Assembly: GCA_964443245.1 (NCBI GenBank) | Contig: CAYUEG010000001.1 | Span: 34,526 to 98,525 of the forward strand | DNA: 64,000 bases | Origin: an uncultured Burkholderiales bacterium | GTDB taxonomy: Bacteria > Pseudomonadota > Gammaproteobacteria > Burkholderiales > JAEUOS01 | Direction: 5' to 3' | Part shown: positions 2,942-21,755 of the stretch, one piece after another | Layout of the letters: every line of letters begins with the position of its first letter | Numbering within the stretch: the first letter of the stretch is position 1 | The notes under the pieces: model-generated | The model's input: the letters and a program-made list of their open reading frames with translations, nothing else | Databases searched by the model: none | Told to the model about the DNA's origin: nothing | Translations under genes and position numbers: made by a program

Positions 2942-4714
2942 ATGCCAGCCGTCGACTCCACGATCACTTATCGTCTGTTTTGTAGCGATCCGCGCGCGCA
3001 TCTGTTTCGCGTCGTCCTCACCGTGCACCATCCGGACCCGGCCGGCTGCGTGCTGTCGCTCCCGGCCTGGATTCCGGGAAGCTACATGATTCGCGAATTC
3101 GCCCGCAACATCGGGCCCATTCGCGCACGAAGCGGGCGGCGCAGCGTCGCATTGACGAAGGTCGATAAGCACACTTGGCATGCCGCCGCGTGCGACGGCG
3201 CCCTGGAGGTGGAATACGAAGTCTATGCCTGGGACCTCTCCGTACGTTCCGCACACCTGGACGAGAGCCATGCATTCTTTAACGGTTCGAGTGTGTTTCT
3301 GAGCGTCCATGGCCATGAGCAGGCGCGCCACCTCGTGCAATTGGTACGGCCGGCCGGAAGACGGTATGCCAATTGGGCTGTCGCTACAACGCTTGCGAGA
3401 GCGCCGGCCACACGAGATCGCGGCTTTGGCAGCTATTACGCCAACAGCTACGATGAACTGATCGACCATCCGGTCGAAATGGGCCAGTTCACGTGGGCCA
3501 CGTTTGAAGCCTGTGGCGTGCCCCATGCCGTCGCCATCACCGGACTGCACGATTGCGATACCCAACGCCTGTGTGCCGATCTGAAAAAGGTGTGCGAAAC
3601 GCAGATCCGCTTCTTCCATGGGCCGCAAGCGTCACATCAATCCCCACCATTCTCGCGCTATCTGTTCCTCGTCATGGCGGTGGGCGAGGGGTATGGTGGG
3701 CTGGAACATCGCAGCTCGACGGCGCTCCTGTGCTCCCGCAATGATCTGCCTTTTCCCTCAATGGGCGCTGCAACGGAGGCCTATCGCGGTTTTCTCGGCT
3801 TATGCAGCCATGAGTATTTTCATGCGTGGAATGTCAAGCAACTGAAGCCGGCCGTCTTTGCGCCGTACGATCTGACGCGCGAGAACTACACGCGTCTGCT
3901 GTGGGCCTTTGAAGGCATTACCAGCTATTACGATGACGTCATGCTGTTACGGGCGGGGGTGATCTCCAGACAGGAATATCTGGACACGCTGGCGCGTGCG
4001 ATACGCGGGGTGCTACGCGGCGCTGGCAGACTCAAGCAATCGGTGGCCGAATCCAGTTTTGACGCCTGGATCAAGTACTACCGGCAGGACGAGAACGCTC
4101 CCAATTCGGTGGTGAGCTACTACACCAAGGGCGCATTGGTCGCCCTGTGCATCGACCTGATGCTGCGGCAGGCCTCGGATGGCAGGCGGTCACTGGATGA
4201 TGTGATGCGCAAGCTGTGGCGCGAGCATGGCGCAACTGGCCAGGGAGTGCCGGAAGCGGGCGTCGAATCAGCGGTACTGGACGTAGCGACTCCCGGGTTG
4301 CGCCGTCGCATGGCGCGGTTTCTCCGCGATGCCGTTCATGGCACGACCGAGTTGCCCCTCAAAGCGCTATTGAAAACGGCGGGTTTTGATCTGCGCGTCT
4401 CACCGGGGGTAGCAAATGCGCTCGGCGCGCGCACAGCCCGCAGTGCCGGCGGCGTCAAGCTGACCCACGTGCTTGACCAAGGTGCAGCGCAGCGCGCCGG
4501 CCTTTCGGCGGGCGACGAAGTCATTGCCTTGAATGGAATCCGGGTCAGCGCCGACACCTTCGAGGGCTTGCTCGCCCGTCTGCCGAAACAGGCTCGGATC
4601 GACGTGCACGCATTCCGGCGCGACGAACTCATCACGCGGGTGCTCACGCCAAGCGAAGGCGAAATCGAGGTCTCGCTGAAGCCTGTTGAGGCTGTGGGTA
4701 CCTCTAGAGATTGA
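2942..4714 (+). CDS. M61 family metallopeptidase with C-terminal PDZ domain
   Basis: 590 aa. HExxH zinc motif within CSHEYFHAWNVK, and a PDZ-like GLSAGDEVIALNG near the C-terminus. Confidence 0.8.
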   Translation: MPAVDSTITYRLFCSDPRAHLFRVVLTVHHPDPAGCVLSLPAWIPGSYMIREFARNIGPIRARSGRRSVALTKVDKHTWHAAACDGALEVEYEVYAWDLSVRSAHLDESHAFFNGSSVFLSVHGHEQARHLVQLVRPAGRRYANWAVATTLARAPATRDRGFGSYYANSYDELIDHPVEMGQFTWATFEACGVPHAVAITGLHDCDTQRLCADLKKVCETQIRFFHGPQASHQSPPFSRYLFLVMAVGEGYGGLEHRSSTALLCSRNDLPFPSMGAATEAYRGFLGLCSHEYFHAWNVKQLKPAVFAPYDLTRENYTRLLWAFEGITSYYDDVMLLRAGVISRQEYLDTLARAIRGVLRGAGRLKQSVAESSFDAWIKYYRQDENAPNSVVSYYTKGALVALCIDLMLRQASDGRRSLDDVMRKLWREHGATGQGVPEAGVESAVLDVATPGLRRRMARFLRDAVHGTTELPLKALLKTAGFDLRVSPGVANALGARTARSAGGVKLTHVLDQGAAQRAGLSAGDEVIALNGIRVSADTFEGLLARLPKQARIDVHAFRRDELITRVLTPSEGEIEVSLKPVEAVGTSRD

Positions 4715-6296
4715 CGCCCGGTATCCGCGACAGATCCACTTCGTCAATCTGCTCCGGGTTGAGAAACTCTTCGGCGTACTTGAGGTAAACCTTTTCCCGG
4801 ATGAACACATCGAAGAGATCCGGGTCCACATGGCCGTTGAGCTTGAACTTTCCGAGAATCTCGAGCGATTCGGTAAGCGTCTTGCCCTTCTTGTAGGGTC
4901 GATCGCGTGCAGTCAGGGCCTCAAAAATGTCCGCAATTCCCATGACCCGTGCCTGCACGCTCATCTGGTCGCGCTTCAAGCCCTTCGGATAACCCTTGCC
5001 ATCCATGCGCTCGTGGTGGCCTCCGGCATACTCCGGAACATTCTTCAGGTGCTTTGGCCAAGGCAGGGTCTCGAGCATCTTGATCGTGGCCACGATGTGG
5101 TTGTTGATCACTTCCCGTTCTTCTGCGGTGAGCGTACCTGCCCGTATCGTCAGGTTCTTCAGTTCGTCAGGTGAAAGAAAATCGCTCTCTGCGCCAGAAA
5201 CGTCGCGCCAGCGGTAGCCGGCAATGCGCTTGACGCGGGCAATGTCGTCTTCCTTCATGAACTCGCCACCGACATTGGCACGACGCAGGAACGCACGATC
5301 CTCCTCGATCAACTGCAGTTTTTCGTCAGCCGCCGCCCGGGTCATCTCGCCCTTGAGGACGGCAATTTCGATATCGCGCTTGAGCACTTCAAAACGCGTA
5401 TCGACCATATGTATCCGGTCGAATATGGTCTCCAGCTTGGTGGCCTTGTCAACCACATGCACCGGGGTCGTGACCTTGCCACAGTCGTGGAGCAGCCCGG
5501 CGATCTTGAGTTCGTAACGATCGCGGTCGGTCATCGTGAAGTCCTTGAGCGGACCCACGTCGGTATTGTTTACAGCCTCGGCCAGCATCATGGTCAGGCT
5601 GGGTACCCGCTGGCAATGCCCGCCGGTGTAGGGTGACTTCTCGTCAATGGCAGTGTTCATCACGTTGATGAACGACTCAAAGAGTTGCTCCAGCTGCAGA
5701 ATCAGGTTGCGATTGGTCAGTGCGATCGCCGCCTGCGAAGCCAGGCTCTCCGCCAATCGCTGATCAGCATCCGAAAAGGTCGTGACCTTGCCGGTCACCG
5801 GATCCAGACGGTTGAGTAACTGCAAAACACCGATGATCTCGTTCTCATGATCCCGCATGGGGATGGTGAGAAACGAAGTCGAGCGGTAGCCCGTCTTCTT
5901 GTCGAACGCGCGGGTGCCGGTGAAATCGAAGCCTTCCGCCGTATAGGCATCCGCAATGTTGACAGTATCACCCGTGAGGGCGGCATAGGCTGCCACCATG
6001 TTCCGGTTGGGCTTGCCATCATCCTCGTACAGCTTGATCGGATAAAACGTAATCGGACTTCCCGACGTGCCGCCGAGATGGATGTTCAACGAATCGTTGA
6101 GCAGGATTTCGAAGTTGAGTTTGTCACCATCGATGACCCGATACAGGGTACCGCCATCTGCCTGAGTGATGTGCTTCGCCGCTTGCAGAATCTTGTCAAG
6201 GAGCGCGTTGATATCACGCTCCTGCGACAGGGCCGCCCCCACCGCATTGAGTTGTTCAAGCCGCCTGAACAGCTCCTCGACTGAAACCGAAGTCAC
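4704..6296 (-). CDS. GAF domain-containing HD-GYP phosphodiesterase (predicted c-di-GMP hydrolase)
   Basis: N-terminal GAF (FDKKTGYRSTSFLTIPM...EIIGVLQLLN), an HD motif (LLHDCGK) and GGHHERMDGKGYPKG. GTG start at 6296 overlaps the upstream stop (GTGA). Confidence 0.85.
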   Translation of the reverse strand: MTSVSVEELFRRLEQLNAVGAALSQERDINALLDKILQAAKHITQADGGTLYRVIDGDKLNFEILLNDSLNIHLGGTSGSPITFYPIKLYEDDGKPNRNMVAAYAALTGDTVNIADAYTAEGFDFTGTRAFDKKTGYRSTSFLTIPMRDHENEIIGVLQLLNRLDPVTGKVTTFSDADQRLAESLASQAAIALTNRNLILQLEQLFESFINVMNTAIDEKSPYTGGHCQRVPSLTMMLAEAVNNTDVGPLKDFTMTDRDRYELKIAGLLHDCGKVTTPVHVVDKATKLETIFDRIHMVDTRFEVLKRDIEIAVLKGEMTRAAADEKLQLIEEDRAFLRRANVGGEFMKEDDIARVKRIAGYRWRDVSGAESDFLSPDELKNLTIRAGTLTAEEREVINNHIVATIKMLETLPWPKHLKNVPEYAGGHHERMDGKGYPKGLKRDQMSVQARVMGIADIFEALTARDRPYKKGKTLTESLEILGKFKLNGHVDPDLFDVFIREKVYLKYAEEFLNPEQIDEVDLSRIPGVNL

Positions 6297-8668
6297 TTGA
6301 TGCAGACTGCCCTAACTTGTTTGAGATCGGTCAGGCCCATCAGGACCTTCTCCATGCCATCCATCTTCAGCGTGTTCATGCCCTCTTCCACGGCAGCAGT
6401 GAACAAGGCGGCCACACGCGCCTTCTCCTGAATCATTTTCTTCAACACCTCGGTGGCGATCATCAACTCGTGCAAACCCGCGCGGCCGCGATACCCGGTG
6501 TTGGAGCACTTCTCGCAACCCTTGGGGCGATACAGGGTCAGCTTGCCATCCTTGCCGTACTCCTCAATCCAGCGATCGTAGAGCTTCTTGAATTGACCTT
6601 GGGGATCCGCTTTCCAGACCGGTGTCTTGACAAGTTCTTCCGCGTATTCGGTGATGAACTGCTTGAGTTCGGTTGCATCCGGATGGTAGGGCTCCTTGCA
6701 ATCCGAGCACAGGCGCTTGGCAAGACGCTGGGCCAGGATCCCCAGGAGCGCATCCCCGAAGTTGAAGGGGTCGCAGCCCATGTCGAGCAGGCGGATGACG
6801 GCCTCTGGCGCGCTGTTGGTGTGCAGCGTAGCGAACACCAGGTGGCCGGTGAGCGATGCTTCGATGCCGGTGTTGGTCGTCTCGGCATCGCGCATCTCAC
6901 CCACCATGATGATGTCCGGATCGGCGCGCAGGAAAGCCTTCATGACGACTGCGAAGTCGAGGCCTGCCTTCTTGTTTACCTGCACCTGGCGCAGGCCCTT
7001 TTGCGTAATCTCGACCGGATCCTCGGCAGTCCAGATCTTGGTGTCAACGGTGTTCAGAAAGCCGAGCACGGAGTGCAGTGTTGTGGTCTTGCCGGAACCG
7101 GTCGGGCCGCAAACAAAAAACAGCCCATACGGCTTGCTTACCGTCTTCTTGAGGTTCTCGCTGTTGTATTTGGTCAGCCCCAGCTTGTCGATCGGGATGG
7201 GTTCACCCGCGGCAAGGATACGCATGACCACGTCTTCGACACCACCCTGGGTCGGGATCGTCGCGACTCGCAGCTCGATATCGAGCGGGCCAAACTTCTT
7301 GAACTTGATCTTGCCGTCCTGCGGCTTGCGCTTTTCCGAAATGTCGAGATCGCACATGATCTTCAGACGTGCCGCAATGGCCGCACGATAGCTGGCGGGT
7401 ATCTCGATGTAGTTCATCAGAGAGCCGTCCTTGCGAAACCGGATCTCGGTCTTTGCCTTGCCAGGATAGGGCTCGATATGGATGTCCGACACACCCATGT
7501 TGTAGGCGTCGACAATGATCTTGTTGACCAGCTTGACGAGTTCATTGTCGGCCGCAGCATCGACGTCATCGGTGGAATTGCCGAGAGAATCCACCGCTTC
7601 ATCGTCCCCCATGCCAGACAGCAGGTCATCGATAGAGCTGGCATCCGCCACCTCGCCAAAGAAACTCGCGAGCGTCTGCTTGAACTCAATACGTGTCGTG
7701 ACGCGATAGGCAATCTTCATTGCCCGCGGAAACACGTTGTTGACGATGCGCGAACTCTTGACCCGCTCCGGATCAAGACACATCACCACAAGCCCTTCCT
7801 TGGCGTCGTCAATCGGAATCCATTCGCTGGACTCGACATAATCACGCTTCAGGTTCTTGAGCAGGTCCATCGGCTTGATGCGGTCTGCCTTGAACGGCTC
7901 ATAGGGCACACCAAAAAACTTTGACAGTCCTGCCCCGATGGCGGGAATCTTGACCTGAAATTCGGTGGTCAGTACCTCTTCGATATCGATGCCCTTGCGT
8001 CGTGCCGAACGCGTCGCCAGATCAAACTCCTGTGCCGACAGTACTGCATCCGCGACCAGATAGTCATACTTGGTTTTGACGGGCTGCGCCGATTTCTGCC
8101 GCTGACGAAAGGCAATCGCCAGAGTTTGGGTCAACCCGGCAACGCCCTCCTCTTCCAGTGCACTGAACGGCTGACCCGACTTGTTGTTGATGATCTGGAC
8201 AACACCAATCAATTCATTGGCCTGAGCGTCCACAATCGGTGCAACCAGCATCTGCTTGGTGCGGTAACCGGTTCGCTTGTCCACCTCCTGCAGAAAGCGC
8301 AAGTTTGGATTATGCGATTTCAGCTCTGCTTCGTCGTACACGTCCTTGATGTTGATGACTTTCTTGGACAAAGCCACATAACCGGCAATGCTCTGCTCGG
8401 CGATGGGCAGTTTCAAGTCCTTGAACGAATTCAGCCCCGTCTTGACCTTCGAAACAATCGAAGCCTTGTCCTCGCCCATCGAGTAGATTGTCAGGCGATC
8501 AGCATTGAACAGGGTGCAGATCTCCTGACTGACCTCCAACATGATCTCGTCGACGTTGTTGGTCGCATGGATCCGGTTGGTGACAGTCTGCAGGTTCTTC
8601 TGAAAATTCAGTTTCAGATTGACATCCGGCGCCTGCGCCGCCGGTTTCGGACTCAACACTGCGCTCAT
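6293..8668 (-). CDS. GspE/PilB-family secretion-type ATPase with N-terminal GAF domain
   Basis: Walker A GPTGSGKT (7085-7108), Walker B DPDIIMVGEMRD, His box GHLVFATLHTNSA, and a CSDC...CEKC zinc motif. T2SSE_N-like segment at aa ~200-310 and GAF at aa ~40-188 (VDKRTGYRTKQMLVAPI). ATG at 8668 preceded by GAGGTGG. Confidence 0.85.
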   Translation of the reverse strand: MSAVLSPKPAAQAPDVNLKLNFQKNLQTVTNRIHATNNVDEIMLEVSQEICTLFNADRLTIYSMGEDKASIVSKVKTGLNSFKDLKLPIAEQSIAGYVALSKKVINIKDVYDEAELKSHNPNLRFLQEVDKRTGYRTKQMLVAPIVDAQANELIGVVQIINNKSGQPFSALEEEGVAGLTQTLAIAFRQRQKSAQPVKTKYDYLVADAVLSAQEFDLATRSARRKGIDIEEVLTTEFQVKIPAIGAGLSKFFGVPYEPFKADRIKPMDLLKNLKRDYVESSEWIPIDDAKEGLVVMCLDPERVKSSRIVNNVFPRAMKIAYRVTTRIEFKQTLASFFGEVADASSIDDLLSGMGDDEAVDSLGNSTDDVDAAADNELVKLVNKIIVDAYNMGVSDIHIEPYPGKAKTEIRFRKDGSLMNYIEIPASYRAAIAARLKIMCDLDISEKRKPQDGKIKFKKFGPLDIELRVATIPTQGGVEDVVMRILAAGEPIPIDKLGLTKYNSENLKKTVSKPYGLFFVCGPTGSGKTTTLHSVLGFLNTVDTKIWTAEDPVEITQKGLRQVQVNKKAGLDFAVVMKAFLRADPDIIMVGEMRDAETTNTGIEASLTGHLVFATLHTNSAPEAVIRLLDMGCDPFNFGDALLGILAQRLAKRLCSDCKEPYHPDATELKQFITEYAEELVKTPVWKADPQGQFKKLYDRWIEEYGKDGKLTLYRPKGCEKCSNTGYRGRAGLHELMIATEVLKKMIQEKARVAALFTAAVEEGMNTLKMDGMEKVLMGLTDLKQVRAVCIK

Positions 8669-8708
8669 AACCACCTCACGCGATGACAGCTTTTCGTTTG
8701 ACCAAAAT

Positions 8709-9788
8709 TCATTGCGAAGGACCCCGTGAAGCCCAAAGTCCTCCCTCCAGAAGCGCTACCTTGAATCCACGATGCGCCAGCAAAAACGCTGCGGCCGCGC
8801 TTCGACGGCCGCTCTGGCAATACACCACATACTCCTTGCTCTTGTCCAGAACCGGAAACGCGTTGCGAATCTCTGCCAGCGGTACGTTGATTGCGGCCGA
8901 CAGGTGATCGTACTGGTATTCGGAAGGATAGCGGACGTCCAGCCACTGCGCACCCGCCGCCACTTTCTCTTTCCCCGCCTCCATGTGGACCCTGTTCAGC
9001 AATGGCTCCTTGAGCAGTGCAATGAAATCCTGTTTGGCGAGACGGAGCAGCACACCATCCAGCTTCATCGTCACCGTGGCATTGCGCTTCGCTTCGGACA
9101 CCAGTGCTTCCTCGCCAAACGCATCACCGCTCTTCAAATCCGCAAGGACTACCACGACACCGCCAACCAGACGCGTTACCTGCGCACGACCCGACTCGAT
9201 GACGTAATAATAGTCGCCTTCATCTCCCTCACGAATCACAACGTCGCCGGATTTGACCTCCACCCGAAAAAAACGATTCAGCAATTCGCCAATATGGGCC
9301 GATGGCAGGTTTCCGAACGCACCCGTCCTCAGGTTATTGACACTAAAGACCCCCGACATGACGTTCCAGGAGCTTGGCACCGGAGGTTCCGCAGCCGCGA
9401 GTGTCTTGAAACGGCCGGTTCGGGTAGCGTCAAACTTTGCCAGCTGATCCCAGGTCATCATGATGTCCAGCATGTCACTATCGATCCGGATCAATTCGAT
9501 CGCACTCAAAGCGCGGCCGCGCAAAATCGGTGTACTGCGGAACAAAGGATCACGCGCTGCCACGGAGCCCGCTTCAACAATCTCCTCTGATCCGTCTTCA
9601 AACACCAAAGCCACTTTGCCCGACAGGAGGTAGGAGACCTGATCCGCAGCAGATTTCATTCTGAAGGGATCTTGCCCTTCCGCCATGTTCTCGGTGTAAC
9701 ACAAGTCGGAGAATTCCTGAAGGCGAGCCTCCGACAACGCCGACAAGGGCTCAAATTGGCGGAGCAGCGCAGAAGAAATCGAGCTCAT
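8709..9788 (-). CDS. Cyclic nucleotide-binding domain protein with C-terminal rhodanese domain
   Basis: Canonical CNB segment GDYYYVIESG...GDAFGEEALVSEAKRNATV, preceded by a degenerate CNB-like N-terminus. The rhodanese domain has an intact active-site loop CQSGRRS (Cys codon 8817-8819). Confidence 0.8.
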   Translation of the reverse strand: MSSISSALLRQFEPLSALSEARLQEFSDLCYTENMAEGQDPFRMKSAADQVSYLLSGKVALVFEDGSEEIVEAGSVAARDPLFRSTPILRGRALSAIELIRIDSDMLDIMMTWDQLAKFDATRTGRFKTLAAAEPPVPSSWNVMSGVFSVNNLRTGAFGNLPSAHIGELLNRFFRVEVKSGDVVIREGDEGDYYYVIESGRAQVTRLVGGVVVVLADLKSGDAFGEEALVSEAKRNATVTMKLDGVLLRLAKQDFIALLKEPLLNRVHMEAGKEKVAAGAQWLDVRYPSEYQYDHLSAAINVPLAEIRNAFPVLDKSKEYVVYCQSGRRSAAAAFLLAHRGFKVALLEGGLWASRGPSQ

Positions 9789-9793
9789 GGCCG

Positions 9794-10561
9794 CTAGAAC
9801 TCGAAAATCTGGCCGTTTTGGAGCATGCGCGGTTTGTAGTCACCGGCAAACTCCTCGATCTCCTGCATCGTCAGTTCGATTTCACCCGGCTTCAAGTGGG
9901 TAATGAAGATTTCCGCACTGCGCTCCAGCTTTGCCAATTCCTCGGCGAGCAAGCTCGGGCACAGGTGCTTGGATGCAATCGCCAGTTGCTTCTCGCGATT
10001 GCAAAACGCGGTCTCAATGATCAAGTACTTCAAATTGGGAATCCGGTTGACCACTTTCCAGAGCGGATCGTTGGTAAAGGTATCCCCCGAAAACACCAGG
10101 CTATGCTTGCCGCTATTGATCTGGTAACCCACCGCGGGCACTGTGTGGTTCGCAGGAAGCACCGTCAGTTTGCGCCCATCAATGGCAAGGCTCTGGCCTT
10201 CCTTGATGGTCTGATAGCGCATGAACGGCTTTTCCGCTGTCGGAATGGCAGTGAAATCCGGCCAGACGTTCCAGTTGAAGATATGTTTCTTGAGCGTATC
10301 GAGCGTCTCCTCGATCGCATAGATCGTAAGAGGCTTGTCACGCATCGCGCCCACGGTATCGACAATAAACGGGATGGTCGCAATATGGTCCAGGTGCGAG
10401 TGCGTCAGAAAAATGTGGTCAATCATCGACATCTCCGTCAGGGAGAGGTCGGTAACACCGGTGCCTGCATCAATCAGGATGTCGTTGTCGATGCGCAATG
10501 AGGTCGTGCGGAGATGTTTGCCCCCGATCCCTCCGCTGCATCCAAGCACTTTGACCTTCAT
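9794..10561 (-). CDS. Class II 3',5'-cyclic-nucleotide phosphodiesterase (metallo-beta-lactamase fold)
   Basis: 255 aa. MKVKVLGCSGGIGG N-terminus and an HSHLDH (HxHxDH) metal motif, typical of the CpdP/PDE1-like class II cAMP phosphodiesterases. Confidence 0.75.
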   Translation of the reverse strand: MKVKVLGCSGGIGGKHLRTTSLRIDNDILIDAGTGVTDLSLTEMSMIDHIFLTHSHLDHIATIPFIVDTVGAMRDKPLTIYAIEETLDTLKKHIFNWNVWPDFTAIPTAEKPFMRYQTIKEGQSLAIDGRKLTVLPANHTVPAVGYQINSGKHSLVFSGDTFTNDPLWKVVNRIPNLKYLIIETAFCNREKQLAIASKHLCPSLLAEELAKLERSAEIFITHLKPGEIELTMQEIEEFAGDYKPRMLQNGQIFEF

Positions 10562-10583
10562 GTGCGAATCATCCCAGATTTCA

Positions 10584-12836
10584 TCACTTCTCGTCGAATG
10601 TGGTCACGCCGTCCCAATTCGCACCTGGCGGGTTCTTGCGGAACTGGGCCACGCGATCTGCATATTTCTGATACAGGTACGAATCCGGATTCATGCGCTG
10701 AAGGTTGAGCAGGTGCATGTCAAACTGATCCCAGGACTGGGCGCGGTAGGCCTTGAGGGCTTCACGCCAGATCTTGATCTCGTCCTTCAGTTCCTTGCTG
10801 GCTTCGGCCTCCAGGCAAAGGGGCTCGAAAATGGCCACAGGTTCGTTCTTCCCCTTCACCCGGATTCGATCCAGCTCACGATACAGCACATCGCGCACCA
10901 GCCTCTCGGTGTTCTCCCCCACCATGACGCCGACGCCGTACTCCTTGGTACGCCCCTCCAGTCGAGAAGCCAGATTAACGGCATCGCCCATTGCGGTGTA
11001 GGCCTTGCGTACTTTCGATCCCATGTCGCCGACGCGCACGACACCGGAGTTGAGGCCGATCCCGATCTTCAAATCCGGCCAACCCTTGGCGATGAACTTG
11101 GCACGCAGGTCCTCGCACGCCTTCTGCATTTCGAGCGCGCTCACAATGCCCTGCCGGGCATGCTCCGGGTCCGGAACCGGCGCACCCCAGAAAGCCATGA
11201 TGCAATCGCCTATGTACTTGTCCAGCGTGCCACGATGGCTCGAAATGATTGCCGACATGGTCGTCAGAAAATCATTGATGTAGAGCGCCAAGTCCGCCGC
11301 CGAAAGACTTTCGGAAATGGTCGTGAAGCCGCGTACATCCGAAAACAGGATCGTCAACTCGGCTTCTGCCGGCTGCATGCTGTACTTTTCGGGATCCTTG
11401 GCCATCTCGTCAACCAGTTCTGGAGGCACGTATTGGCCAAACAGCTCGGTAAACTGCCTCTTGCTGCGACTCTCCACGAAGTAGCCATAAGCCATATTCA
11501 ATGTGAATAACCCGGCAGTCATCAATAACGAGGCTGCAAGCGGAATCACAGTGTCTGCCTGGGTATAGATCACATAGTTGAGTGCAATGATCAACAGCAT
11601 AGCCACCACTGCCACCAGGGTTGCACGCAACGGGGACAGAAATGGCATGAGCATTGCCAGGGTAATGCCACCAATCAGGAGCAGTACCACCTCTGCTCCA
11701 ACGGTAAAGGCAGGCCGTTGTTTGAAGTTTTGGGACAACATGCCGGAGAGGAGGTTGGCGTGGATCTCTACCCCAGGATAGGCTTCACCCACAGGCGTGG
11801 AGCGCAAATCCAGCAGGCCTGGTGCGGTAGTGCCCCAAATGGCGATCTTCCCTCTCAGATCTTCCTTACGCGCCTTGCCTTCCCAAATGTCTCCCAATGA
11901 CACATAACGAAAGCTGTTGGCTGTGGGCCCACCGCGCCCCCGATAGGGCACCAGGGCACTCACGGTCTTGTCGACCGGTATCGTGAATGTCCGATTGGCA
12001 GCATTCAATTCCAGCCATTCCATCCCGCTGTAATTCTTGGATAGAAAGCGTTCCGGTGGATAACCCGGCTGCACCTTGGGCGATCCCAAGAGCGTGCGGA
12101 ACATGGCAAGGGAAAGGGACTCGTAGTACTCGCCGCGATACTCGGAGAGCATGGGAACCCTGCGCACCACGCCATCATGATCGACAATCGGGTTGAACAG
12201 GCCTGCAGAGTAAGCCGCCTTTTGCAGCGCCGGCAGGTTGCCGCCGTGCCCATTCCACTGGAACCAGTCAATGTTGCGTCCCTTGAAGGAACCGGCCGGC
12301 ATCACAGGGGCCGGGAGCGCGCCACTCTTTTCTGCATCCGCTTCACTCGACAAGTAATAGCCCAGCACCACAGGCTTGCCGGCAATCGATTTCGCAAACT
12401 GATCATCGAAATCCAGGCTGGGACGCAATTGCTGCAACTTGGCCTGGAACTCGGGCACACCTTGCAATTCGGTCTTTGCGAGCGCCTCGAGTGTTGCGAT
12501 GCCAGAACTGGTATCAGGTTCGGCAAATACGACGTCGAAGCCCACCATCGCAACGCCGTAATCGTCCTTGCCGTCACCCATGATCTTGTTCATGAGTTTG
12601 GCCATTTTGTCGCGATTCCACGGCCAACGGCCCAACTTACCCAAACTCTTCTCGTCAATATCAAGAATGACGATTCTGTCATCAAGCTTGGACGGCATCG
12701 TCAACTTCATGCGCGCATCGTAGATGATGGCGTCGAGCTGACTGATGAAGCGGATATTGAAAATCTCGGCTGCATGGGCGAGAAACACCAGCAGCACTGC
12801 AATCCCTAAGCTGATTCGGACGATGTGCTGCTTCAA
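10584..12836 (-). CDS. CHASE2 sensor-containing class III adenylate/guanylate cyclase (predicted adenylate cyclase)
   Basis: N-terminal TM helix, a CHASE2-like periplasmic region, then a TM bundle. Cyclase core FSDVRGFT...LDKYIGDCIMAFWG...YTAMGDAVNLASRLE. TTG start at 12836 preceded by GGGAGG 5 nt upstream. Confidence 0.85.
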   Translation of the reverse strand: MKQHIVRISLGIAVLLVFLAHAAEIFNIRFISQLDAIIYDARMKLTMPSKLDDRIVILDIDEKSLGKLGRWPWNRDKMAKLMNKIMGDGKDDYGVAMVGFDVVFAEPDTSSGIATLEALAKTELQGVPEFQAKLQQLRPSLDFDDQFAKSIAGKPVVLGYYLSSEADAEKSGALPAPVMPAGSFKGRNIDWFQWNGHGGNLPALQKAAYSAGLFNPIVDHDGVVRRVPMLSEYRGEYYESLSLAMFRTLLGSPKVQPGYPPERFLSKNYSGMEWLELNAANRTFTIPVDKTVSALVPYRGRGGPTANSFRYVSLGDIWEGKARKEDLRGKIAIWGTTAPGLLDLRSTPVGEAYPGVEIHANLLSGMLSQNFKQRPAFTVGAEVVLLLIGGITLAMLMPFLSPLRATLVAVVAMLLIIALNYVIYTQADTVIPLAASLLMTAGLFTLNMAYGYFVESRSKRQFTELFGQYVPPELVDEMAKDPEKYSMQPAEAELTILFSDVRGFTTISESLSAADLALYINDFLTTMSAIISSHRGTLDKYIGDCIMAFWGAPVPDPEHARQGIVSALEMQKACEDLRAKFIAKGWPDLKIGIGLNSGVVRVGDMGSKVRKAYTAMGDAVNLASRLEGRTKEYGVGVMVGENTERLVRDVLYRELDRIRVKGKNEPVAIFEPLCLEAEASKELKDEIKIWREALKAYRAQSWDQFDMHLLNLQRMNPDSYLYQKYADRVAQFRKNPPGANWDGVTTFDEK

Positions 12837-12894
12837 GCCTGCCTCCCGTCAAGGTCTCCCACGCTGCCCCTCCCGAGGCTCTGCGGACGGGAGT

Positions 12895-13635
12895 CTACTT
12901 GTAGAAAAACTCCATCTTGGTGCCCGCGATCTCGATCACGTCGTGGTCGTTCAGTGGATGCGCCTGGGCGTCAAGCGCCTTGCCATTGACGACCGGGAAG
13001 GTCGCACCTTCCACGTGGGTGATGAAAAAGCCCTGCGGGCGGCGAGTGATGACGGCCACTTGCACACCCGGTTTGCCCAAGGTTGTCAGTGCCTTGGTGA
13101 GCACAAGTTCCTTGCCCACATTTGCACCCGACAACAGCTGGATTGCCCCCTGTTTCGCGGGCGCAGCGGCCGGGGCCGGGGCAGCAGCTGCCGCCGGGGC
13201 AGCCGCTGCGGCAGCCGGGCCTTTGACCGTACGGTCGTCATCGGCCTTGGCAGCCACCGGCGCGGCAGCAGCTGGGGCCGGCTTCGGCATCGAACCAGGA
13301 CGCAACACCATCGTCTTTTCGAAATCGGCAGCAGCAGCAGCCTTTGGCGCCTCATTGATGTATTTGAGCTTGTATTTGCCCAACTCAATGACGTCATTGG
13401 GTTGCAGGAAATGCTTCTTGATCGGCTGGCCGTTAACCAATGTTCCATTGGTCGACCCCAAGTCCTCCAGGAATGAGTCGTTGAGGATCGTCACGATGAC
13501 CGCATGCTCGCCAGAGACAGCCAGATTGTCGATCTGGATGTCATTGTGCGGCTTGCGGCCGATCGTGGTGCGCTCCTTGCTCAGGGTAATTTCCTTGAGC
13601 ACCAAGCCATCCATGCTGAGAATTAGCTTTGCCAT
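12895..13635 (-). CDS. FHA domain protein (N-terminal canonical FHA, Ala/Pro-rich linker, C-terminal FHA-like domain)
   Basis: TIGRKPHNDIQIDNLAVSGEHAVI...GSTNGTLVNG is a canonical FHA core. The second beta-rich domain ends ...DHDVIEIAGTKMEFFYK. Confidence 0.8.
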   Translation of the reverse strand: MAKLILSMDGLVLKEITLSKERTTIGRKPHNDIQIDNLAVSGEHAVIVTILNDSFLEDLGSTNGTLVNGQPIKKHFLQPNDVIELGKYKLKYINEAPKAAAAADFEKTMVLRPGSMPKPAPAAAAPVAAKADDDRTVKGPAAAAAAPAAAAAPAPAAAPAKQGAIQLLSGANVGKELVLTKALTTLGKPGVQVAVITRRPQGFFITHVEGATFPVVNGKALDAQAHPLNDHDVIEIAGTKMEFFYK

Positions 13636-13685
13636 AGCCCGATCCTTTTCTCTTTCACTTGTTATTGCATTTTGTTACAGCCAGT

Positions 13686-14516
13686 TTACTTGAACCATCC
13701 CAAGAACTTGCCAAACATCCCTTTTGCAGCCGGGTATTCCTTCAAAATCTTGACGAGTAGCACGGATACGTTATCACGCCCGCCATTGTCGTTAGCCATC
13801 TGTACAAGCTGCTGCGCGGCCAGATTCAGATTTCCACCGAGCGACTCCAATGCCAGGCCGATTTCAGGGTCTTCCACCATGTCGGACAAGCCGTCCGAGC
13901 AGAGCAGATAGATATCCCCGGGTTGGGTGTCGTAGTCGTGAATTTCAGGTTCTACCGTCGGGTCAATGCCGAGGGCGCGCGTGACCAGATTCTTGTTCTG
14001 GGAATGCTTCGCCTCTTCTTCCGTGATCATGCCGCTGTCAATCTGCTCCTGCAGCAATGAATGGTCCCGTGTAACCTGCGAGAGGACACCATCACGCATT
14101 CGGTAAAGACGTGAATCGCCGATATGTGCAACCGTCATCCGGTTATCGTAAAAGACAGCCATCACCAGCGTGGTGCCCATCCCTGAGTATTGCGGTTGCG
14201 ACTGGGACGCTGAATAAATTGACGTATTCGCCTTGGTGATCTGCTCGCGCAACATCCGCGCCGCCATGGTTCCCGCCTCCGCCCCCTGAGGGTCGGGTTC
14301 AAAGGGTGCATGCTGCGCCATGGCGGCCTGCAGTTCCGTCATCAGCACTGTTGTTGCCATACCGCTGGCGACTTCACCAGCGTTGTAACCGCCCATGCCA
14401 TCGGCCAGAATCGCCAACCCGTGGCGTACATCGTTCGCTATCGAGTCCTCGTTATGAGACCGCACCATACCCGGATCGGTATGGCCGACGATCTCGATCG
14501 CGTCAGAAAGGCTCAT
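13686..14516 (-). CDS. PP2C-family Ser/Thr protein phosphatase (Stp1-like)
   Basis: Motifs RSHNEDS, ADGMGG, SDGLSD and GGRDNVSVLLV. Confidence 0.9.
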   Translation of the reverse strand: MSLSDAIEIVGHTDPGMVRSHNEDSIANDVRHGLAILADGMGGYNAGEVASGMATTVLMTELQAAMAQHAPFEPDPQGAEAGTMAARMLREQITKANTSIYSASQSQPQYSGMGTTLVMAVFYDNRMTVAHIGDSRLYRMRDGVLSQVTRDHSLLQEQIDSGMITEEEAKHSQNKNLVTRALGIDPTVEPEIHDYDTQPGDIYLLCSDGLSDMVEDPEIGLALESLGGNLNLAAQQLVQMANDNGGRDNVSVLLVKILKEYPAAKGMFGKFLGWFK

Positions 14517-14524
14517 GCTCGATC

Positions 14525-17341
14525 CTATAGGGAGATGTCTACGTCGTCATCCTTGCCAGCAGGTTTGGCACCTGCGGGTTTGGCGGCAGCACCACCCGCG
14601 GGAAGGATGACCGTCTTGTCGGCGTCTGACGTCGCGGCAGGCGCTGCCTGCATCTGCACGGTCCCGCCGGCGTGCGGATTCGGCGCAACCGGAGCCGCAG
14701 GAGCAGCAGGCTTGGGAGTCACGGGCCGCGCCGCCGGAATGTTCATGCCGGTTGACGATGCAGGATTCTCACCGAAGGGCCGGAGCGCGGCCGCGAACTC
14801 TTCGCCAGTCTGAAAGCGTTCATCGGCGTCCTTTGCCATGGCGCGCTTGAGCACCTCTGCAAGTCCTTCAGGCACGTCCGGATTCAACGTGCGAACGTCT
14901 GCAGGTTCTTCATTCGCAATCTTGAACATCAACTGGGCCATCGAATCGCCAACAAACGGCAACCTGCCGGTCAGCATCTGGTAAATGCTGACGGCAAGGG
15001 AGAACAAATCGGAACGCCCATCGACCTTCTTGCCCGAGAGTTGTTCGGGCGACATGTAAGACGGCGTACCGAGCACCATCCCGGTCTTGGTCTTGGACGA
15101 GTCTGTGACCCGTGCGATACCGAAATCAGCGACCTTCGGGTTATCGCCCTCAAGGTCATACATGATGTTCGCCGGCTTGATGTCGCGGTGCACGACATTC
15201 TGGCGATGTGCGTATCCGAGTGCATCAGCGACTCTCGCAAAGATCGAGACCACGCGCGGAATTGGCAACAGCGATTCCGGCTTGGTGTAGGGCACCAAAT
15301 CCTGCCCTTTGAGCAATTCCATGGCGATGTAGCACAGGTCGTGCTCGTCGCCAGTGTCGTAAATGGTGACAATGTTCTGGTGATTGAGGCGGCCGGCGGT
15401 CTCTGCCTCGCGGAAGAAGCGCTCCTTTGCTTCCGCCAGTTCGTCTGCTTCGAACTCCTGGGAGAGCGCCATCGTCTTGATGGCAACCGAGCGACCGATC
15501 TTCGGATCCTTGCCGAGATAGACCACGCCCATGGCACCCTTGCCGAGTTCCTTCTCGATCTGGTACCTGCCCAGCATGGGCTTCTCGCCCTGACCGGTCG
15601 CATCCAGGATGCTCGCATTGCTGCGACCGCTGGCACCGCCCAGAATCACCGTTTCAGAAAGGTTCTTGGCACGGGCGATCTTCTGCTCCAGATCCTTGTA
15701 CTTCGGATCGTAGCCGTGCATGTGTTCATACACGGCCTGAGCCTTGTTGAATTGCCGCTTCCGCTCGAAATCGAGCGCCAGGTTGTACAGGTTGTCCATC
15801 AAGGCGCCGTCAAATGGCACTTTGCGAAACTTGTCAAACGCAATATCAAGCTGACCCTGCCCCTGAAACGCCAGACCCAGCATGCGGTTTGACTCAGCAG
15901 ACTCAACATCGGACTTCTGCTTGCCGGCCTCCGTCACGATGAAGCGTTTGGTGGTGAGCAAAAGATGACCAACGAGCAACAGCGTGGCCGGCACCATCAG
16001 CTGGATCCACATGCCTGCGGACGTCATCAGCAGAAAATGGACTACGAGCAAACCCGCAAGCAATCCAAGCGTGATCAGTCCGGCAGGCTTGGCTTTCAGT
16101 TTTGGCAGCATCCCGATCAGGTAGGCAGCGATCAGAATGAATATCAGGAGCTCAACCCAGATCGCCCAGGTCGGCGCGACAAAAAAGTGCTCGGAAAGGA
16201 TACTGGACACGGAGTGTGCCATTTTCTCCACCGGGGTCATCGCGGCCGAGATCGGCGTCGGAAAACTGGTACCGACACCCGCCGCCGTGGGGCCGATCAG
16301 CACAATCTTGCCAGCGTAGTTCTCCGCCTTGATCTTCCCTGACAGCACGTCATAGAAGGAATCCAGCTGGAAGGCCTTTTTGCCGTCCCGATCCTTGTAG
16401 TAGTACGTGTACATCTGGTTCAGGGGATCTGTGGTAATGGCAAGCTTGCCGAGCTTGAGCTGCTCGCCCCAATTTACCTTGATGTCGGAAATACCGAGAT
16501 TGAGGCTCTTGGCAGCGATCATCACCGAGTAAGACGGGAAGTACCTGTCAAAGTACTGCACCACCAAGGGTTCGGTGCGTACGCCGCCATCGACGTCAGG
16601 CAAGTCGTTCAGATGTCCAAGACCCGCAGCTGCCGTACCCAATTGCTCAATCGGCAATTGAATGGCCGCAGAGGGAACCGCATTGCCCCCCTTGTCCTCA
16701 AACGAGCTCTTTTCGGTAAATTTCGGCAGGCTCTTGTCCGGCTTGCCGCGCGGGTCGCCCAGTGTAAACACCAGAGGCAACATGACATTGCCAGCCTTCG
16801 TGTAGCTTTCCGCAAGTCTGCGGTCGGTATTGAGCGCGACTTCGGCTTCCTTGAGCAAAGCACCGAATTGAGCCAGTTCCGCCGAACCCTGAACAGGTTG
16901 GGCCGCCGCTTCCACTGCAGGGGCCGACGTCACGGCCACTGCCCCGGGGACAGCGGGGGCCGCTTGGGCACCTGCCGGCTTTCCGCCGTACAGCTCGATC
17001 AACTTGTTGATGTAAACCAGACCGGGATCTTGCTGCGCTTCAAAGAAGAACACGGTGTTGCCGATAACCTTCACCTTTGCTCCGGCGAGCAAGTCGGTCA
17101 TTTTGGCGTGGATGTCACGACTCCAGGGCCAACGGCCAATATTGTTGATGCTCTGGTCGTCAATCGCGATGATCGCGATTTGCTTGTTCGGCTCCTTGGA
17201 AGAAGCCTTGACCCCAAGATCGTAGGCTTTGCGCTCAAGGCTTTGCAGCAGGTCACCACCGCGCAAGAACAAAAAAACGAGCGCGATGACCACCCCCAGA
17301 AACCAATCTGATTTCCAGAAATCCGACTTGATTTTCGCCAT
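14525..17341 (-). CDS. CHASE2 sensor-containing transmembrane Ser/Thr protein kinase
   Basis: N-terminal TM helix, CHASE2-like region, TM bundle and a TPR-like segment. C-terminal Hanks kinase: GKGAMGVVY, VAIK, HRDIKPAN, DFGIA, SPE. Pro/Ala-rich tail. ATG at 17341 preceded by GAGGAGGA; the ORF-track start at 17404 is less likely. Confidence 0.85.
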   Translation of the reverse strand: MAKIKSDFWKSDWFLGVVIALVFLFLRGGDLLQSLERKAYDLGVKASSKEPNKQIAIIAIDDQSINNIGRWPWSRDIHAKMTDLLAGAKVKVIGNTVFFFEAQQDPGLVYINKLIELYGGKPAGAQAAPAVPGAVAVTSAPAVEAAAQPVQGSAELAQFGALLKEAEVALNTDRRLAESYTKAGNVMLPLVFTLGDPRGKPDKSLPKFTEKSSFEDKGGNAVPSAAIQLPIEQLGTAAAGLGHLNDLPDVDGGVRTEPLVVQYFDRYFPSYSVMIAAKSLNLGISDIKVNWGEQLKLGKLAITTDPLNQMYTYYYKDRDGKKAFQLDSFYDVLSGKIKAENYAGKIVLIGPTAAGVGTSFPTPISAAMTPVEKMAHSVSSILSEHFFVAPTWAIWVELLIFILIAAYLIGMLPKLKAKPAGLITLGLLAGLLVVHFLLMTSAGMWIQLMVPATLLLVGHLLLTTKRFIVTEAGKQKSDVESAESNRMLGLAFQGQGQLDIAFDKFRKVPFDGALMDNLYNLALDFERKRQFNKAQAVYEHMHGYDPKYKDLEQKIARAKNLSETVILGGASGRSNASILDATGQGEKPMLGRYQIEKELGKGAMGVVYLGKDPKIGRSVAIKTMALSQEFEADELAEAKERFFREAETAGRLNHQNIVTIYDTGDEHDLCYIAMELLKGQDLVPYTKPESLLPIPRVVSIFARVADALGYAHRQNVVHRDIKPANIMYDLEGDNPKVADFGIARVTDSSKTKTGMVLGTPSYMSPEQLSGKKVDGRSDLFSLAVSIYQMLTGRLPFVGDSMAQLMFKIANEEPADVRTLNPDVPEGLAEVLKRAMAKDADERFQTGEEFAAALRPFGENPASSTGMNIPAARPVTPKPAAPAAPVAPNPHAGGTVQMQAAPAATSDADKTVILPAGGAAAKPAGAKPAGKDDDVDISL

Positions 17342-17517
17342 CGTGTCCTCCTCGCGCTTGTGTTTTTCTCGCGGAACGCGCCACTGCATCACTTCGGACT
17401 GCAACTACCTCGCCACGCCCTGATGAAGCCGCCAAACCGGCAAAGAGCAGGGCGTAACGCTCAAGATTCTACGGCAAAACTGGAAAAAAGAGGGAATTTC
17501 GCAAAATAAACAGCATG

Positions 17518-17547
17518 ATGATACGCATTCTTGTAGTTGACTATCAA
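17518..17547 (-). promoter_or_regulatory. Candidate sigma70 promoter for the eight-gene signalling operon
   Basis: On the minus strand: TTGATA (17542-17547), an 18-nt spacer, then TATCAT (17518-17523). It lies in the only AT-rich stretch between the terC terminator and the kinase start. Pattern match only. Confidence 0.3.
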
Positions 17548-17569
17548 GAGCGTTTTGCTGGCAAATGTG

Positions 17570-17613
17570 CAAAAACCCAACAAAATGGCGGTATCCGGCC
17601 AACCGATACCGCC
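17570..17613 (-). terminator. Rho-independent terminator downstream of terC
   Basis: 10-bp stem tggcggtatc/gataccgcca (17586-17613) with a 9-nt loop, followed on the minus strand by TTTTGTTGGGTTTTT. Confidence 0.7.
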
Positions 17614-17656
17614 ACAAAAGCAAATGCCCTGACCCTGCGACCCGGTGCCTGCAACC

Positions 17657-18343: not shown

Positions 18344-18370
18344 TTTTTTTCTCCGTTGTTTTTATGGAAA

Positions 18371-19267: not shown

Positions 19268-19304
19268 GATGGTTTCCTGTTAGGCCATGCTCACTGGGCG
19301 GGGA

Positions 19305-20465: not shown

Positions 20466-20535
20466 AGCGACCCCCTCGTCTTCAACACGCCGGCACGAAG
20501 CATATCCGGCAACCCAGAAAAATCATTAGCAAAGA

Positions 20536-21726: not shown

Positions 21727-21755
21727 TCCGCTTGCCTCCAGGATAGACGGCGGAA

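Follow-up and report, generated by a model that had tools for sequence, protein, structure and literature searches.

A conserved betaproteobacterial operon may place a PilB-like ATPase and an HD-GYP enzyme under cyclic AMP and phosphothreonine control

Why would a bacterium encode a PilB-like motor ATPase in one block with two membrane-bound signaling enzymes, a phosphatase, a phosphothreonine (pThr) adaptor and an HD-GYP enzyme? The question is raised by eight minus-strand genes at positions 4704 to 17341 of a 64-kb stretch of DNA (the window) from contig CAYUEG010000001.1 of an uncultured Burkholderiales bacterium. They encode, in the direction of transcription, a CHASE2-Ser/Thr kinase, a PP2C phosphatase, an FHA adaptor, a CHASE2-class III cyclase, a candidate cyclic nucleotide phosphodiesterase (PDE), a CNB-rhodanese protein, a GAF-fused PilB-like ATPase and a GAF-HD-GYP enzyme. 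Our analysis indicates that these genes form a real, tightly packed signaling operon. We are fairly confident that it is one functional unit in which cyclic AMP (cAMP) and pThr signals act on the ATPase and the HD-GYP enzyme. With a probability of roughly 0.55, the overall picture is that of a cAMP- and pThr-controlled PilB-type motor paired with an HD-GYP enzyme that degrades cyclic di-GMP (c-di-GMP), with type IV pili as the output.

Re-reading of the open reading frames (ORFs) reproduced exactly the eight same-strand ORFs and the gap values given in a first-pass annotation of this DNA, and Pfam backed all of its domain calls. The intergenic distances from the kinase gene to the HD-GYP gene are 8, 50, 58, 22, 5, 40 and −4 bp, the last being the 4-bp overlap of the HD-GYP gene start with the ATPase stop. 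As the kinase start we chose the ATG at 17341, with GAGGAG just 5′ of it, within a mechanical ORF that extends to a TTG at 17404; the ATPase start was set at the ATG at 8668, as in 791-residue homologues. Both operon boundaries described in the annotation are visible. Downstream, the convergent gene of an M61 peptidase (2942 to 4714, plus strand) runs 11 bp into the 3′ end of the HD-GYP gene. Upstream, terC (17657 to 18343) ends in a GC-rich hairpin with a T-run that resembles an intrinsic terminator (17571 to 17613, minus strand; GGCGGUAUCGG-UUGG-CCGGAUACCGCC and then AUUUUGUUGGGUUUUU). It is followed by an AT-richer leader of the kinase gene with a sigma-70-like promoter match (17518 to 17547, minus strand; TTGATA-18-TATCAT, 10/12), which is a consensus match only and the best in the region from 4000 to 18500. 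The GC content of this region is lowest at 17001 to 18000 (0.533), and no terminator-like match on the operon strand falls between the genes in the same region. Because promoter-like and terminator-like matches in the region are no more numerous than expected from shuffled sequence, these signals fit one transcription unit without proving it.

The conservation of the block is more telling. We scanned one genome per GTDB species with the ATPase and found at least 517 encoding loci, of which the best 80 were taken for comparison; gene content was counted in the 43 of these, all from other betaproteobacterial species, that cover the whole region. Gene order (kinase, PP2C, FHA, cyclase, PDE, CNB-rhodanese where present, ATPase, HD-GYP) and orientation are identical in 43/43 loci, and the intergenic gaps of the relatives are likewise short. 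The first-pass annotation had named co-conservation in related genomes as a point on which its operon would stand or fall, and on this point it stands. Its conserved unit of eight genes has to be narrowed, however: the genes are co-conserved, but only PP2C, the FHA protein, the GAF-ATPase and GAF-HD-GYP are present in all 43 loci, and the complete set occurs in 24. Around this four-gene core the cyclase (41/43), PDE (38/43), kinase (35/43) and CNB-rhodanese (31/43) are progressively dispensable accessory inputs. The kinase is absent, with PP2C and the FHA adaptor retained, from L010, L011, L015, L034, L036, L058, L075 and L080. CoA-transferase and formyltransferase genes adjoin the PP2C gene in L011 and L036, and sucCD does so, directly or with terC between, in L058, L075 and L080, the last two of which also lack the cyclase.

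Median identities are 73% for the ATPase (80 species), the highest of the cluster, 71% for HD-GYP, 58% for the cyclase and 53%, the lowest, for CNB-rhodanese; the effectors evolve slowest and the sensors fastest. Close homologues of the ATPase number in the thousands, and every labeled one comes from Betaproteobacteria or Burkholderiales. Carriers include Burkholderiales metagenome-assembled genomes, the Rhodocyclaceae Azospira, Methyloversatilis, Sulfuritalea, Sterolibacterium and Sulfurisoma, “Ca. Nitricoxidireducens,” and the Gallionellaceae Gallionella, Sideroxydans and Ferrigenium (“Ca. Ferrigenium”). ATPase identity is 69 to 91% across the class, and the window's own clade keeps the operon at 84 to 91%. 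The operon is vertically inherited in Betaproteobacteria. In the window it is preceded by recA, recX, a DUF2889 gene, sucC, sucD and terC (17657 to 22898). This order is partly common to L002, L004, L039, L041, L056, L066 and others, which have terC and/or sucCD 5′ of the kinase gene, and since many loci share part of it, the operon occupies the same chromosomal place throughout the class.

What kind of ATPase is encoded here? The 791-residue protein (6293 to 8668; this and all other operon features lie on the minus strand) consists of a GAF domain, a GSPII/MshEN-like N1 domain, an N2 domain and the C-terminal domain (CTD) of an extension-type ATPase (Pfam T2SSE, 8.1e−113; GAF, 1.2e−10). Its best match in the PDB is Myxococcus xanthus PilB (3jc8, 7.8e−108), to which it aligns over PilB residues 8 to 461 and 478 to 557. 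The complete N1-N2-CTD architecture of PilB is accompanied by Walker A and B motifs, Asp and His boxes and a zinc motif; GPTGSGKTTT (Walker A), DPDIIMVGEMRD, ATLHTNSA and C656/C659/C720/C723 are invariant in the family. A tetracysteine motif of this kind is typical of extension ATPases. The NCBIfam PilB model (TIGR02538) is the top-scoring family model with 482.3 bits, against a cut-off of 675.65, and we do not call the protein a bona fide PilB. It is not a GspE either (TIGR02533, 435.8 bits against a cut-off of 630.25), and no gspF, gspL, gspD or pseudopilin gene lies near it in the window. Nor does it qualify as TfpB (386 against 850). Because it falls below the cut-offs of all three, we regard it as a distinct subfamily. 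Between the two CxxC pairs (window 6518 to 6685, about residues 663 to 718) its segment is about 28 residues longer than that of M. xanthus PilB (query 663 to 708 against PilB 461 to 478) and varies among the orthologues.

The GAF domain of the ATPase (8111 to 8554) is of the cyclic nucleotide monophosphate type. It matches both GAF domains of CyaB2 (1ykd, 5.9e−29) and, more weakly, the cGMP-binding GAF-B of PDE2A (4e−13). RFLQEVDKRTGYRTKQML is invariant in the family, with the pocket signature F..(E/x)VD..TGY.T. The GAF domain of the HD-GYP enzyme matches PDE5 (1.5e−16), PDE2, CyaB2 (1ykd, 1.2e−9) and PmGH, the GAF-HD-GYP protein of Persephonella marina. Both domains thus belong to the cyclic mononucleotide GAF subfamily (PDE2/5/6/10, CyaB1/2), and the first-pass annotation was right to call them cyclic nucleotide-type, their best solved relatives being the Anabaena CyaB2 GAFs, PDE2/5/6/10 and PmGH. 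It had also called them sister domains. They are related members of one subfamily, but their identity of 35% over 68 residues rules out a recent duplication, as does the 25% identity between the two CHASE2 domains of the kinase and the cyclase. We consider both GAF domains to be putative cAMP receptors.

Some PilB/GspE-type ATPases read c-di-GMP through two 24-residue MshEN motifs in this part of the protein, and we rejected this mode of sensing for the operon ATPase. Its N1 region (7652 to 8077), which aligns to M. xanthus PilB 8 to 109, retains the helical part and the T2SSE_N/MshEN fold (Pfam MshEN, 22.3 bits; 22 to 25 bits overall). However, the two motifs that define MshEN, RLGxx(L/V/I)(L/V/I)xxG(L/V/I)(L/V/I)xxxxLxxxLxxQ, are missing. 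The motif II residues R33, G35, G42 and Q56 of PilB correspond to D230, E232, F239 and F253, and motif I is also replaced, with KTKYD preceding YLVADAVLS. The replacing residues are themselves conserved in the ATPase family, and the ATPase N1 matched no MshEN structure even at an E-value of ≤10. Because N1 lacks the binding motifs, the HD-GYP enzyme does not obviously act on the ATPase via c-di-GMP.

The predicted GAF-HD-GYP phosphodiesterase (530 residues, 4704 to 6296; Pfam HD_5, 1.8e−43; GAF, 3.4e−15) has PmGH (4mcw, 7.5e−32) as its best PDB match, followed by V-cGAP3 (5z7c). HDCGK and GGHHERMDGKGYP are conserved in 70 HD-GYP orthologues, and the protein shows the HD and HHExxDGxGYP motifs and the GAF-HD-GYP architecture of this enzyme class. 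Within the HD-GYP domain it carries an insertion of about 95 residues (residues 288 to 383, 5148 to 5435), seen where the alignment to PmGH jumps from query residue 288 to 383 and partly conserved among the 70 orthologues. A GAF-associated HD-GYP insertion has been described in Leptospira and also in Paraburkholderia (PMC12943098). The GAF-HD-GYP protein Tlr0485 of Thermosynechococcus is activated by cAMP, according to 2020 work as cited in PMC10124867 and bioRxiv 10.1101/2021.11.05.467447.

The operon appears able to make its own cAMP. The cyclase (750 residues, 10584 to 12836) has a CHASE2 domain, three transmembrane helices and a class III catalytic domain (Pfam CHASE2, 1.3e−53; Guanylate_cyc, 9.8e−22), and its best solved relative is the catalytic domain of Pseudomonas aeruginosa CyaB (3r5g, 1.4e−32). 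The alignment to CyaB includes FSD, LDKYIGD and YTAMGDAVNLASRLE, each of them conserved across 64 orthologues. Class IIIb adenylyl cyclases are recognized by two metal-binding aspartates, a substrate-defining Lys/Thr pair and a transition-state Asn and Arg. All of these are present here, with the Lys in LDKYIGD and the Thr in YTAMGDAVN, and the aspartates, Lys and Thr are kept in the 64 orthologues, which places the enzyme in subclass IIIb. Because of the Lys/Thr pair and the closeness to the CyaB catalytic domain, its product is probably cAMP. A cyclic mononucleotide cyclase is thus present, as the first-pass annotation had it, but the cAMP/cGMP pool proposed there narrows to cAMP.

The next gene encodes a metallo-β-lactamase (MBL)-fold hydrolase (255 residues, 9794 to 10561; Pfam Lactamase_B_2, 4e−19), which is a class II-like PDE candidate. 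The match to Pfam PDEase_II is real (59.3 bits, cut-off 23.7) and includes the HxHxDH motif, present as HSHLDH, but it covers only model positions 83 to 145 of 340 (63 positions), and with the NCBIfam cyclic nucleotide PDE model the protein reaches 34.7 where the cut-off is 400. The earlier class II assignment is thus a tentative one. The best PDB match is yeast PDE1 (4ojv, 2e−8 over 65 residues). The flanks of HSHLDH presumably deviate from the class II PROSITE pattern. The CNB-rhodanese protein (359 residues, 8709 to 9788; Pfam cNMP_binding, 6e−24; Rhodanese, 1.8e−15) has the domains for which it was named, but also an additional, degenerate CNB-like region at its N terminus, which is weak (E-value, 5.7e−4). 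The phosphate-binding cassette of the CNB domain, FGEEAL..RNAT, is intact and conserved, as is the catalytic-Cys loop of the rhodanese domain, CQSGRRS. The sulfurtransferase may thus be a branch of the circuit, as had been proposed, but it is an accessory one, because CNB-rhodanese belongs to the progressively dispensable genes. In L036 a stand-alone CNB protein is encoded upstream of the cluster (345 to 995).

The second arm of the operon concerns pThr. The kinase (938 residues, 14525 to 17341; Pfam CHASE2, 1.5e−49; Pkinase, 1.8e−52) is built from one transmembrane helix, CHASE2, three transmembrane helices, a juxtamembrane segment and a Hanks kinase domain. The VAIK, HRD and DFG motifs, which the first-pass annotation reported as intact, are present together with SPE, and SVAIKTM, HRDIKPAN, ADFGIA and MSPEQ are kept in at least 95% of 43 kinase orthologues, as expected of a Hanks-type kinase. 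Between the last transmembrane helix and the kinase domain lies the TxxL motif SETVILGG (15635 to 15658), conserved in the 43 orthologues, which is a candidate site of autophosphorylation and FHA docking. The juxtamembrane segment (residues ~475 to 548, window 15700 to 15920; ESNRMLGLAFQGQGQLDIAFDKFRKVP...LYNLALDFERKRQFNKAQ) is strongly conserved and has a TPR-like or helical look; no Pfam family matched it. PP2C (276 residues, 13686 to 14516; Pfam PP2C_2) is a Ser/Thr phosphatase that passes the NCBIfam Stp1/IreP model NF033484 with 257.5 bits (cut-off 230).

The adaptor (246 residues, 12895 to 13635) joins a canonical FHA domain (residues 23 to 86; Pfam FHA, 2.5e−22) through an Ala/Pro-rich linker to a degenerate FHA-like domain. 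The pThr-binding residues of the N-terminal domain, R27, S41/H44 and S61-T62-N63-G64 (GR, SxxH, STNG), are invariant and mark it as a reader of pThr. The C-terminal 84 residues are highly conserved and score weakly with Pfam (FHA, E-value 0.14; YscD-type, 0.015). An AlphaFold2 model of this domain, with a predicted local distance difference test (pLDDT) score of 63.5, has FHA domains alone as its top ~20 PDB matches, among them those of GarA, Rv1747 FHA-2, Ki67, OdhI and DgcB (probability ~1, TMq ~0.55, E-values 0.09 to 1). The GR, SxxH and STNG residues are absent from it, and we read it, on the basis of the modeled fold, as a pseudo-FHA interaction domain. The double FHA of the first-pass annotation is thus a fair description of the fold of both domains but wrong as to function, the second being degenerate. 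The model of the whole protein has low confidence (pLDDT 59.5) because the linker is disordered. The only conserved stretch of this linker in 55 sequences is another TxxL motif, DFEKTMVLRP (13297 to 13326), which is invariant in A2 and is a candidate phospho-acceptor.

Which machine might the ATPase drive? A search of the neighborhood for partners turned up no pilC, pilD or pilMNOPQ, whether in the cluster or elsewhere in the window. The relatives are more informative. A pilin gene (Pfam N_methyl and Pilin) occurs within 6.5 kb downstream of the HD-GYP gene in 35 of the 46 loci with enough downstream sequence, and directly downstream (<500 bp, same strand) in 19 of the 65 loci scored for direct adjacency; it is never found upstream. 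The adjacent genes, one or two in number, encode type IVa pilins (e.g., L067, 14274 to 16466; L051, 14081 to 14581). They are often followed by a gene for a TPR-containing protein (L067) or by glycosyltransferase-like ORFs, which may be pilin modification genes. Some relatives have further genes with a link to cyclic nucleotides or polyphosphate near the cluster; in Azospira (L051, 15196 to 17576) these encode a Crp-family regulator and a CYTH-CHAD protein and are found 1 to 3 kb downstream of the pilin gene. In the window's own clade, the convergent M61 peptidase gene stands at the place of the pilin. The self-contained circuit of the first-pass annotation therefore has to be given up: the cluster has no platform, pilin or secretin partner, PilB is the nearest family of the ATPase, and a pilin gene follows in most relatives. 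The output is likely a type IV pilus machine encoded elsewhere, although for pilus output as such we see the chances as evenly balanced.

The window itself holds a Pil-Chp chemosensory cluster with pilG, pilH, pilI and pilJ homologues (47369 to 57168, minus strand), about 30 kb from the operon, from which we conclude that the organism has type IV pili. Its genes encode two single-domain response regulators (56743 to 57168 and 56320 to 56685), a CheW-like protein (55763 to 56290), PilJ (53571 to 55736) and a ChpA-like CheA of 2,056 residues with several Hpt domains (47369 to 53539). In P. aeruginosa, Pil-Chp drives CyaB and cAMP (PMC11656802). A GGDEF-EAL gene (62870 to 63991, minus strand), cut by the window end, adds a c-di-GMP enzyme to the Pil-Chp neighborhood.

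The gene content, motifs, family assignments, co-conservation and pilin link in relatives are directly established, and from them we infer the ligands, the phosphorylation events and the pilus output of the following model. A periplasmic or membrane cue would act on the CHASE2 domain of the class IIIb cyclase and set a cAMP pool, which the MBL-type phosphodiesterase would reset. Binding of cAMP to the GAF domain of the HD-GYP enzyme would switch on c-di-GMP hydrolysis, as shown biochemically for Tlr0485. Binding to the GAF domain of the ATPase would release or promote the activity of the hexamer, or else its docking to a pilus platform whose genes lie elsewhere. Pilus extension and a fall in c-di-GMP would thus be triggered jointly and produce a switch in surface behavior, and CNB-rhodanese, where present, would be a third, accessory cAMP receiver. 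In parallel, the second CHASE2 sensor would control the Hanks kinase, opposed by PP2C. The kinase would phosphorylate TxxL threonines, its own in SETVILGG and that of the adaptor in DFEKTMVLRP; the canonical FHA domain of the adaptor would read pThr, and the pseudo-FHA domain would recruit or release the ATPase/HD-GYP pair. This pair, invariably encoded with the adaptor, is its most plausible partner.

Several observations speak against this model or parts of it. The ATPase fails the equivalog cut-off of PilB. No pilin gene lies beside the cluster in the window or in L001, L003, L004, L006 and L056; the pilin motif G(F/Y/M)(T/S)LIE is absent from all six frames of the whole 64 kb; and pilC, pilM and secretin genes are absent from the cluster. 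We take a recA-recX-sucCD-terC-pilA block to be typical of Betaproteobacteria, and because pilA would follow these genes in any case, the pilin adjacency may be inherited synteny. With 8/43 loci lacking the kinase and 2/43 the cyclase, neither input is indispensable in cis. To our knowledge, the ligand specificity of GAF domains is not reliably readable from sequence. HD-GYP enzymes can hydrolyze 3′3′-cyclic GMP-AMP (3′3′-cGAMP), and V-cGAP3 is the second-best structural relative of the operon enzyme. The model of the C-terminal adaptor domain has moderate confidence, with weak E-values for its fold matches. Finally, four distant GAF-ATPases (L082, L083, L084 and L085) are orphan genes in unrelated contexts.

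How do the alternatives fare? The cAMP/pThr unit could be real and its ATPase something other than a pilus extension motor, serving another filament or secretion process or acting as a stand-alone signaling ATPase, with the pilin as a relic of synteny. The scores below the PilB, GspE and TfpB cut-offs would fit such a protein, as would the missing platform, pilin and secretin genes, the loss of pilin adjacency in a clade that kept the operon at 84 to 91% identity, and the orphan state of distant family members beside acyl-CoA dehydrogenase, glutathione S-transferase (GST) or pyrimidine genes. M. xanthus PilB is itself reported to be also an exopolysaccharide (EPS) signaling protein (PMC5544727). 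However, the N1-N2-CTD architecture of the ATPase is complete, with strictly conserved catalytic boxes and zinc motif, PilB is both its best-scoring family model and its best solved relative, and 19 loci have the pilin gene immediately after the cluster in the same orientation, 35/46 at no more than 6.5 kb from it. We therefore judge this explanation unlikely, while taking it seriously. A different doubt concerns the messenger. The GAF domains might be blind to the product of the neighboring cyclase and bind cGMP or another ligand, or serve as dimerization modules, which would leave the CNB domain as the only reader of cAMP. GAF domains are known to bind many ligands, that of PmGH has no established one, the ATPase GAF also matches the cGMP-binding PDE2A GAF-B, and both GAF domains are retained where the cyclase (2/43) or the PDE (5/43) is absent. 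Against this stand the much better match to the cAMP-binding GAFs of CyaB2 (5.9e−29 against 4e−13), the invariant pocket signature, the conserved adenylyl-type Lys/Thr pair of the cyclase and the co-occurrence of the GAF proteins with the cyclase in 41/43 loci and with the PDE in 38/43. For the HD-GYP half, Tlr0485 provides a direct precedent. A GAF pair that ignores cAMP thus seems improbable to us.

Two further explanations would dissolve the circuit altogether. The genes could be neighbors by descent only and belong to unrelated pathways, since the conserved upstream recA, recX, sucCD and terC indicate that regional gene order is generally stable. This fits poorly with gaps of −4 to 58 bp on one strand without intergenic terminators, with sets of writer, eraser and reader for both pThr and cAMP in a single block, and with the retention of this block across three families while its flanks change (upstream frc/formyltransferase genes, sucCD or terC; downstream a pilin gene, an M61 peptidase gene or others), and we rate it as highly improbable. 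The last alternative, an anti-phage defense island of the Pycsar or kinase type, arises from domain-level PADLOC matches to PycC (100 bits, the cyclase), the CNB region of PycTIR (28 bits) and PD-T4-6 kinase models. These matches are confined to generic catalytic or binding domains. The operon lacks a toxic effector domain (TIR, transmembrane pore or nuclease) and has a rhodanese domain in its place; it is chromosomal, syntenic and vertically inherited across the class with 69 to 91% ATPase identity; its sensors are periplasmic CHASE2 domains; and the specificity residues of its cyclase are of the adenylyl type. With nothing beyond domain matches and in this syntenic context, we did not assign the operon to Pycsar, and a role in defense is scarcely credible. 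The reading that we prefer remains that of a cAMP- and pThr-controlled PilB-type motor encoded with a c-di-GMP-degrading HD-GYP enzyme.

GAF-fused PilB-like ATPases are not restricted to this operon. An exhaustive search with the GAF and N1 domains returned 281 clusters (50% identity) at E-values of <1e−30, including full-length proteins of 746 to 808 residues at 30 to 50% identity and tandem-GAF forms of ~940 to 1,018 residues. The pocket signature F..D..TG(Y/F).T is found in 12 of 17 distant full-length relatives. The four distant GAF-ATPase genes that we looked up have no pilus, secretion or signaling genes as neighbors and no conserved neighborhood. One of them, P0131, has an MBL-fold gene directly upstream, with a product only 28% identical to the operon PDE. 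The distant members (30 to 50% identity in the N-terminal part) include P0168, P0171, P0174, P0187 and P0195. The GAF-fused PilB-like ATPases are thus a broad family, of which the signaling operon is a betaproteobacterial elaboration.

How does the operon compare with known systems? It shares with the Pil-Chp/CyaB/CpdA/Vfr system of P. aeruginosa (PMC11656802) the closest cyclase catalytic domain, a dedicated PDE (a candidate one here), a Pil-Chp cluster (here in the window) and a presumed output in type IV pili. However, cAMP acts there via the transcription factor Vfr, whereas the putative receptor here is fused to the motor ATPase and the HD-GYP enzyme; the sensor of the operon cyclase is CHASE2, not MASE2 with PilG input, and the operon has no Crp/Vfr gene. 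As in MshE, PilB and PilF, an N-terminal extension would let a PilB/GspE-type ATPase with a retained N1 fold read a second messenger, but the operon ATPase lacks the two 24-residue c-di-GMP motifs and has an extra GAF domain before N1. Acinetobacter baylyi has two extension motors, PilB and TfpB (PMC11656802). Like TfpB, the operon ATPase would be a second, phylogenetically distinct PilB-like ATPase away from pilC that probably serves the same pilus machine; unlike it, it scores far below the TfpB cut-off, and TfpB has neither a GAF domain nor a signaling operon. PmGH (4mcw) and Tlr0485 share the GAF-HD-GYP architecture and the conserved HD and GYP motifs with the operon enzyme. The latter differs from PmGH in its ~95-residue catalytic-domain insertion and from both in the position of its gene, 3′ of and overlapping the GAF-ATPase gene in a cAMP/pThr operon.

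The pThr arm has parallels of its own. In the P. aeruginosa H1 type VI secretion system (H1-T6SS), the membrane Hanks kinase PpkA, the PP2C PppA and the FHA adaptor Fha1 are encoded with a nanomachine ATPase and gate the machine post-translationally. The operon has the same set of a Hanks kinase with an extracytoplasmic sensor, a PP2C, an FHA adaptor and an ATPase partner, whereas its sensor is CHASE2, its adaptor consists of FHA and pseudo-FHA domains, and its ATPase is PilB-like and not ClpV. Although kinase, PP2C and FHA are present, Tss genes are absent from the window, and the likeness to the T6SS threonine phosphorylation pathway is one of analogy only. GarA and OdhI of Actinobacteria are small FHA proteins that carry their own phospho-acceptor Thr and are controlled by a Hanks kinase and PP2C. 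The adaptor resembles them in its conserved, candidate acceptor Thr motif and its kinase/PP2C pair, and both were among the top fold matches; its motif, however, lies in the linker between FHA and pseudo-FHA, and its targets are probably not metabolic enzymes. Of the remaining genes of the window, that of an alpha-2-macroglobulin (1,968 residues, 31892 to 37798) adjoins the gene of a PBP1C-type penicillin-binding protein (29652 to 32024), both on the minus strand, which is a classic paired arrangement.

The first-pass annotation knew of no characterized system of this composition. Our literature search likewise found no description of the operon or of a GAF-fused PilB/GspE ATPase, most papers in subscription journals being outside its coverage, and the operon is not mentioned in the Ramlibacter or Dechloromonas genome papers. 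The means of PilB control covered in a 2024 review are c-di-GMP/MshEN, PilZ-FimX and inhibitor proteins. This review also raises the question of what purpose multiple PilB homologues serve; the term GAF occurs nowhere in it. The individual mechanisms that we propose would not surprise a specialist. The parts and the regulatory logic are known, and what is new is a widespread, uncharacterized wiring with the messenger sensor placed on the motor protein.

It is an open question what turns the extension motors of type IV pili on and off post-translationally, and a PilB-like family with a cyclic nucleotide-type GAF domain would offer a good test case for direct action of cAMP on such a motor. We tentatively suggest that the GAF-fused PilB-like ATPases may be direct cAMP receptors and a new class of messenger-gated type IV filament motors that extends beyond Betaproteobacteria, and that in Betaproteobacteria, where a translationally linked, cAMP-gated HD-GYP enzyme and a gate of kinase, PP2C and FHA/pseudo-FHA adaptor would join the ATPase, this post-translational switch may couple extension to c-di-GMP removal without a transcription factor. 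If true, the operon would be a compact natural example of crosstalk between cAMP, c-di-GMP and pThr. Its carriers include iron oxidizers (Gallionella, Sideroxydans and Ferrigenium) and denitrifying or perchlorate-reducing Rhodocyclaceae, bacteria for which attachment and biofilm formation matter.

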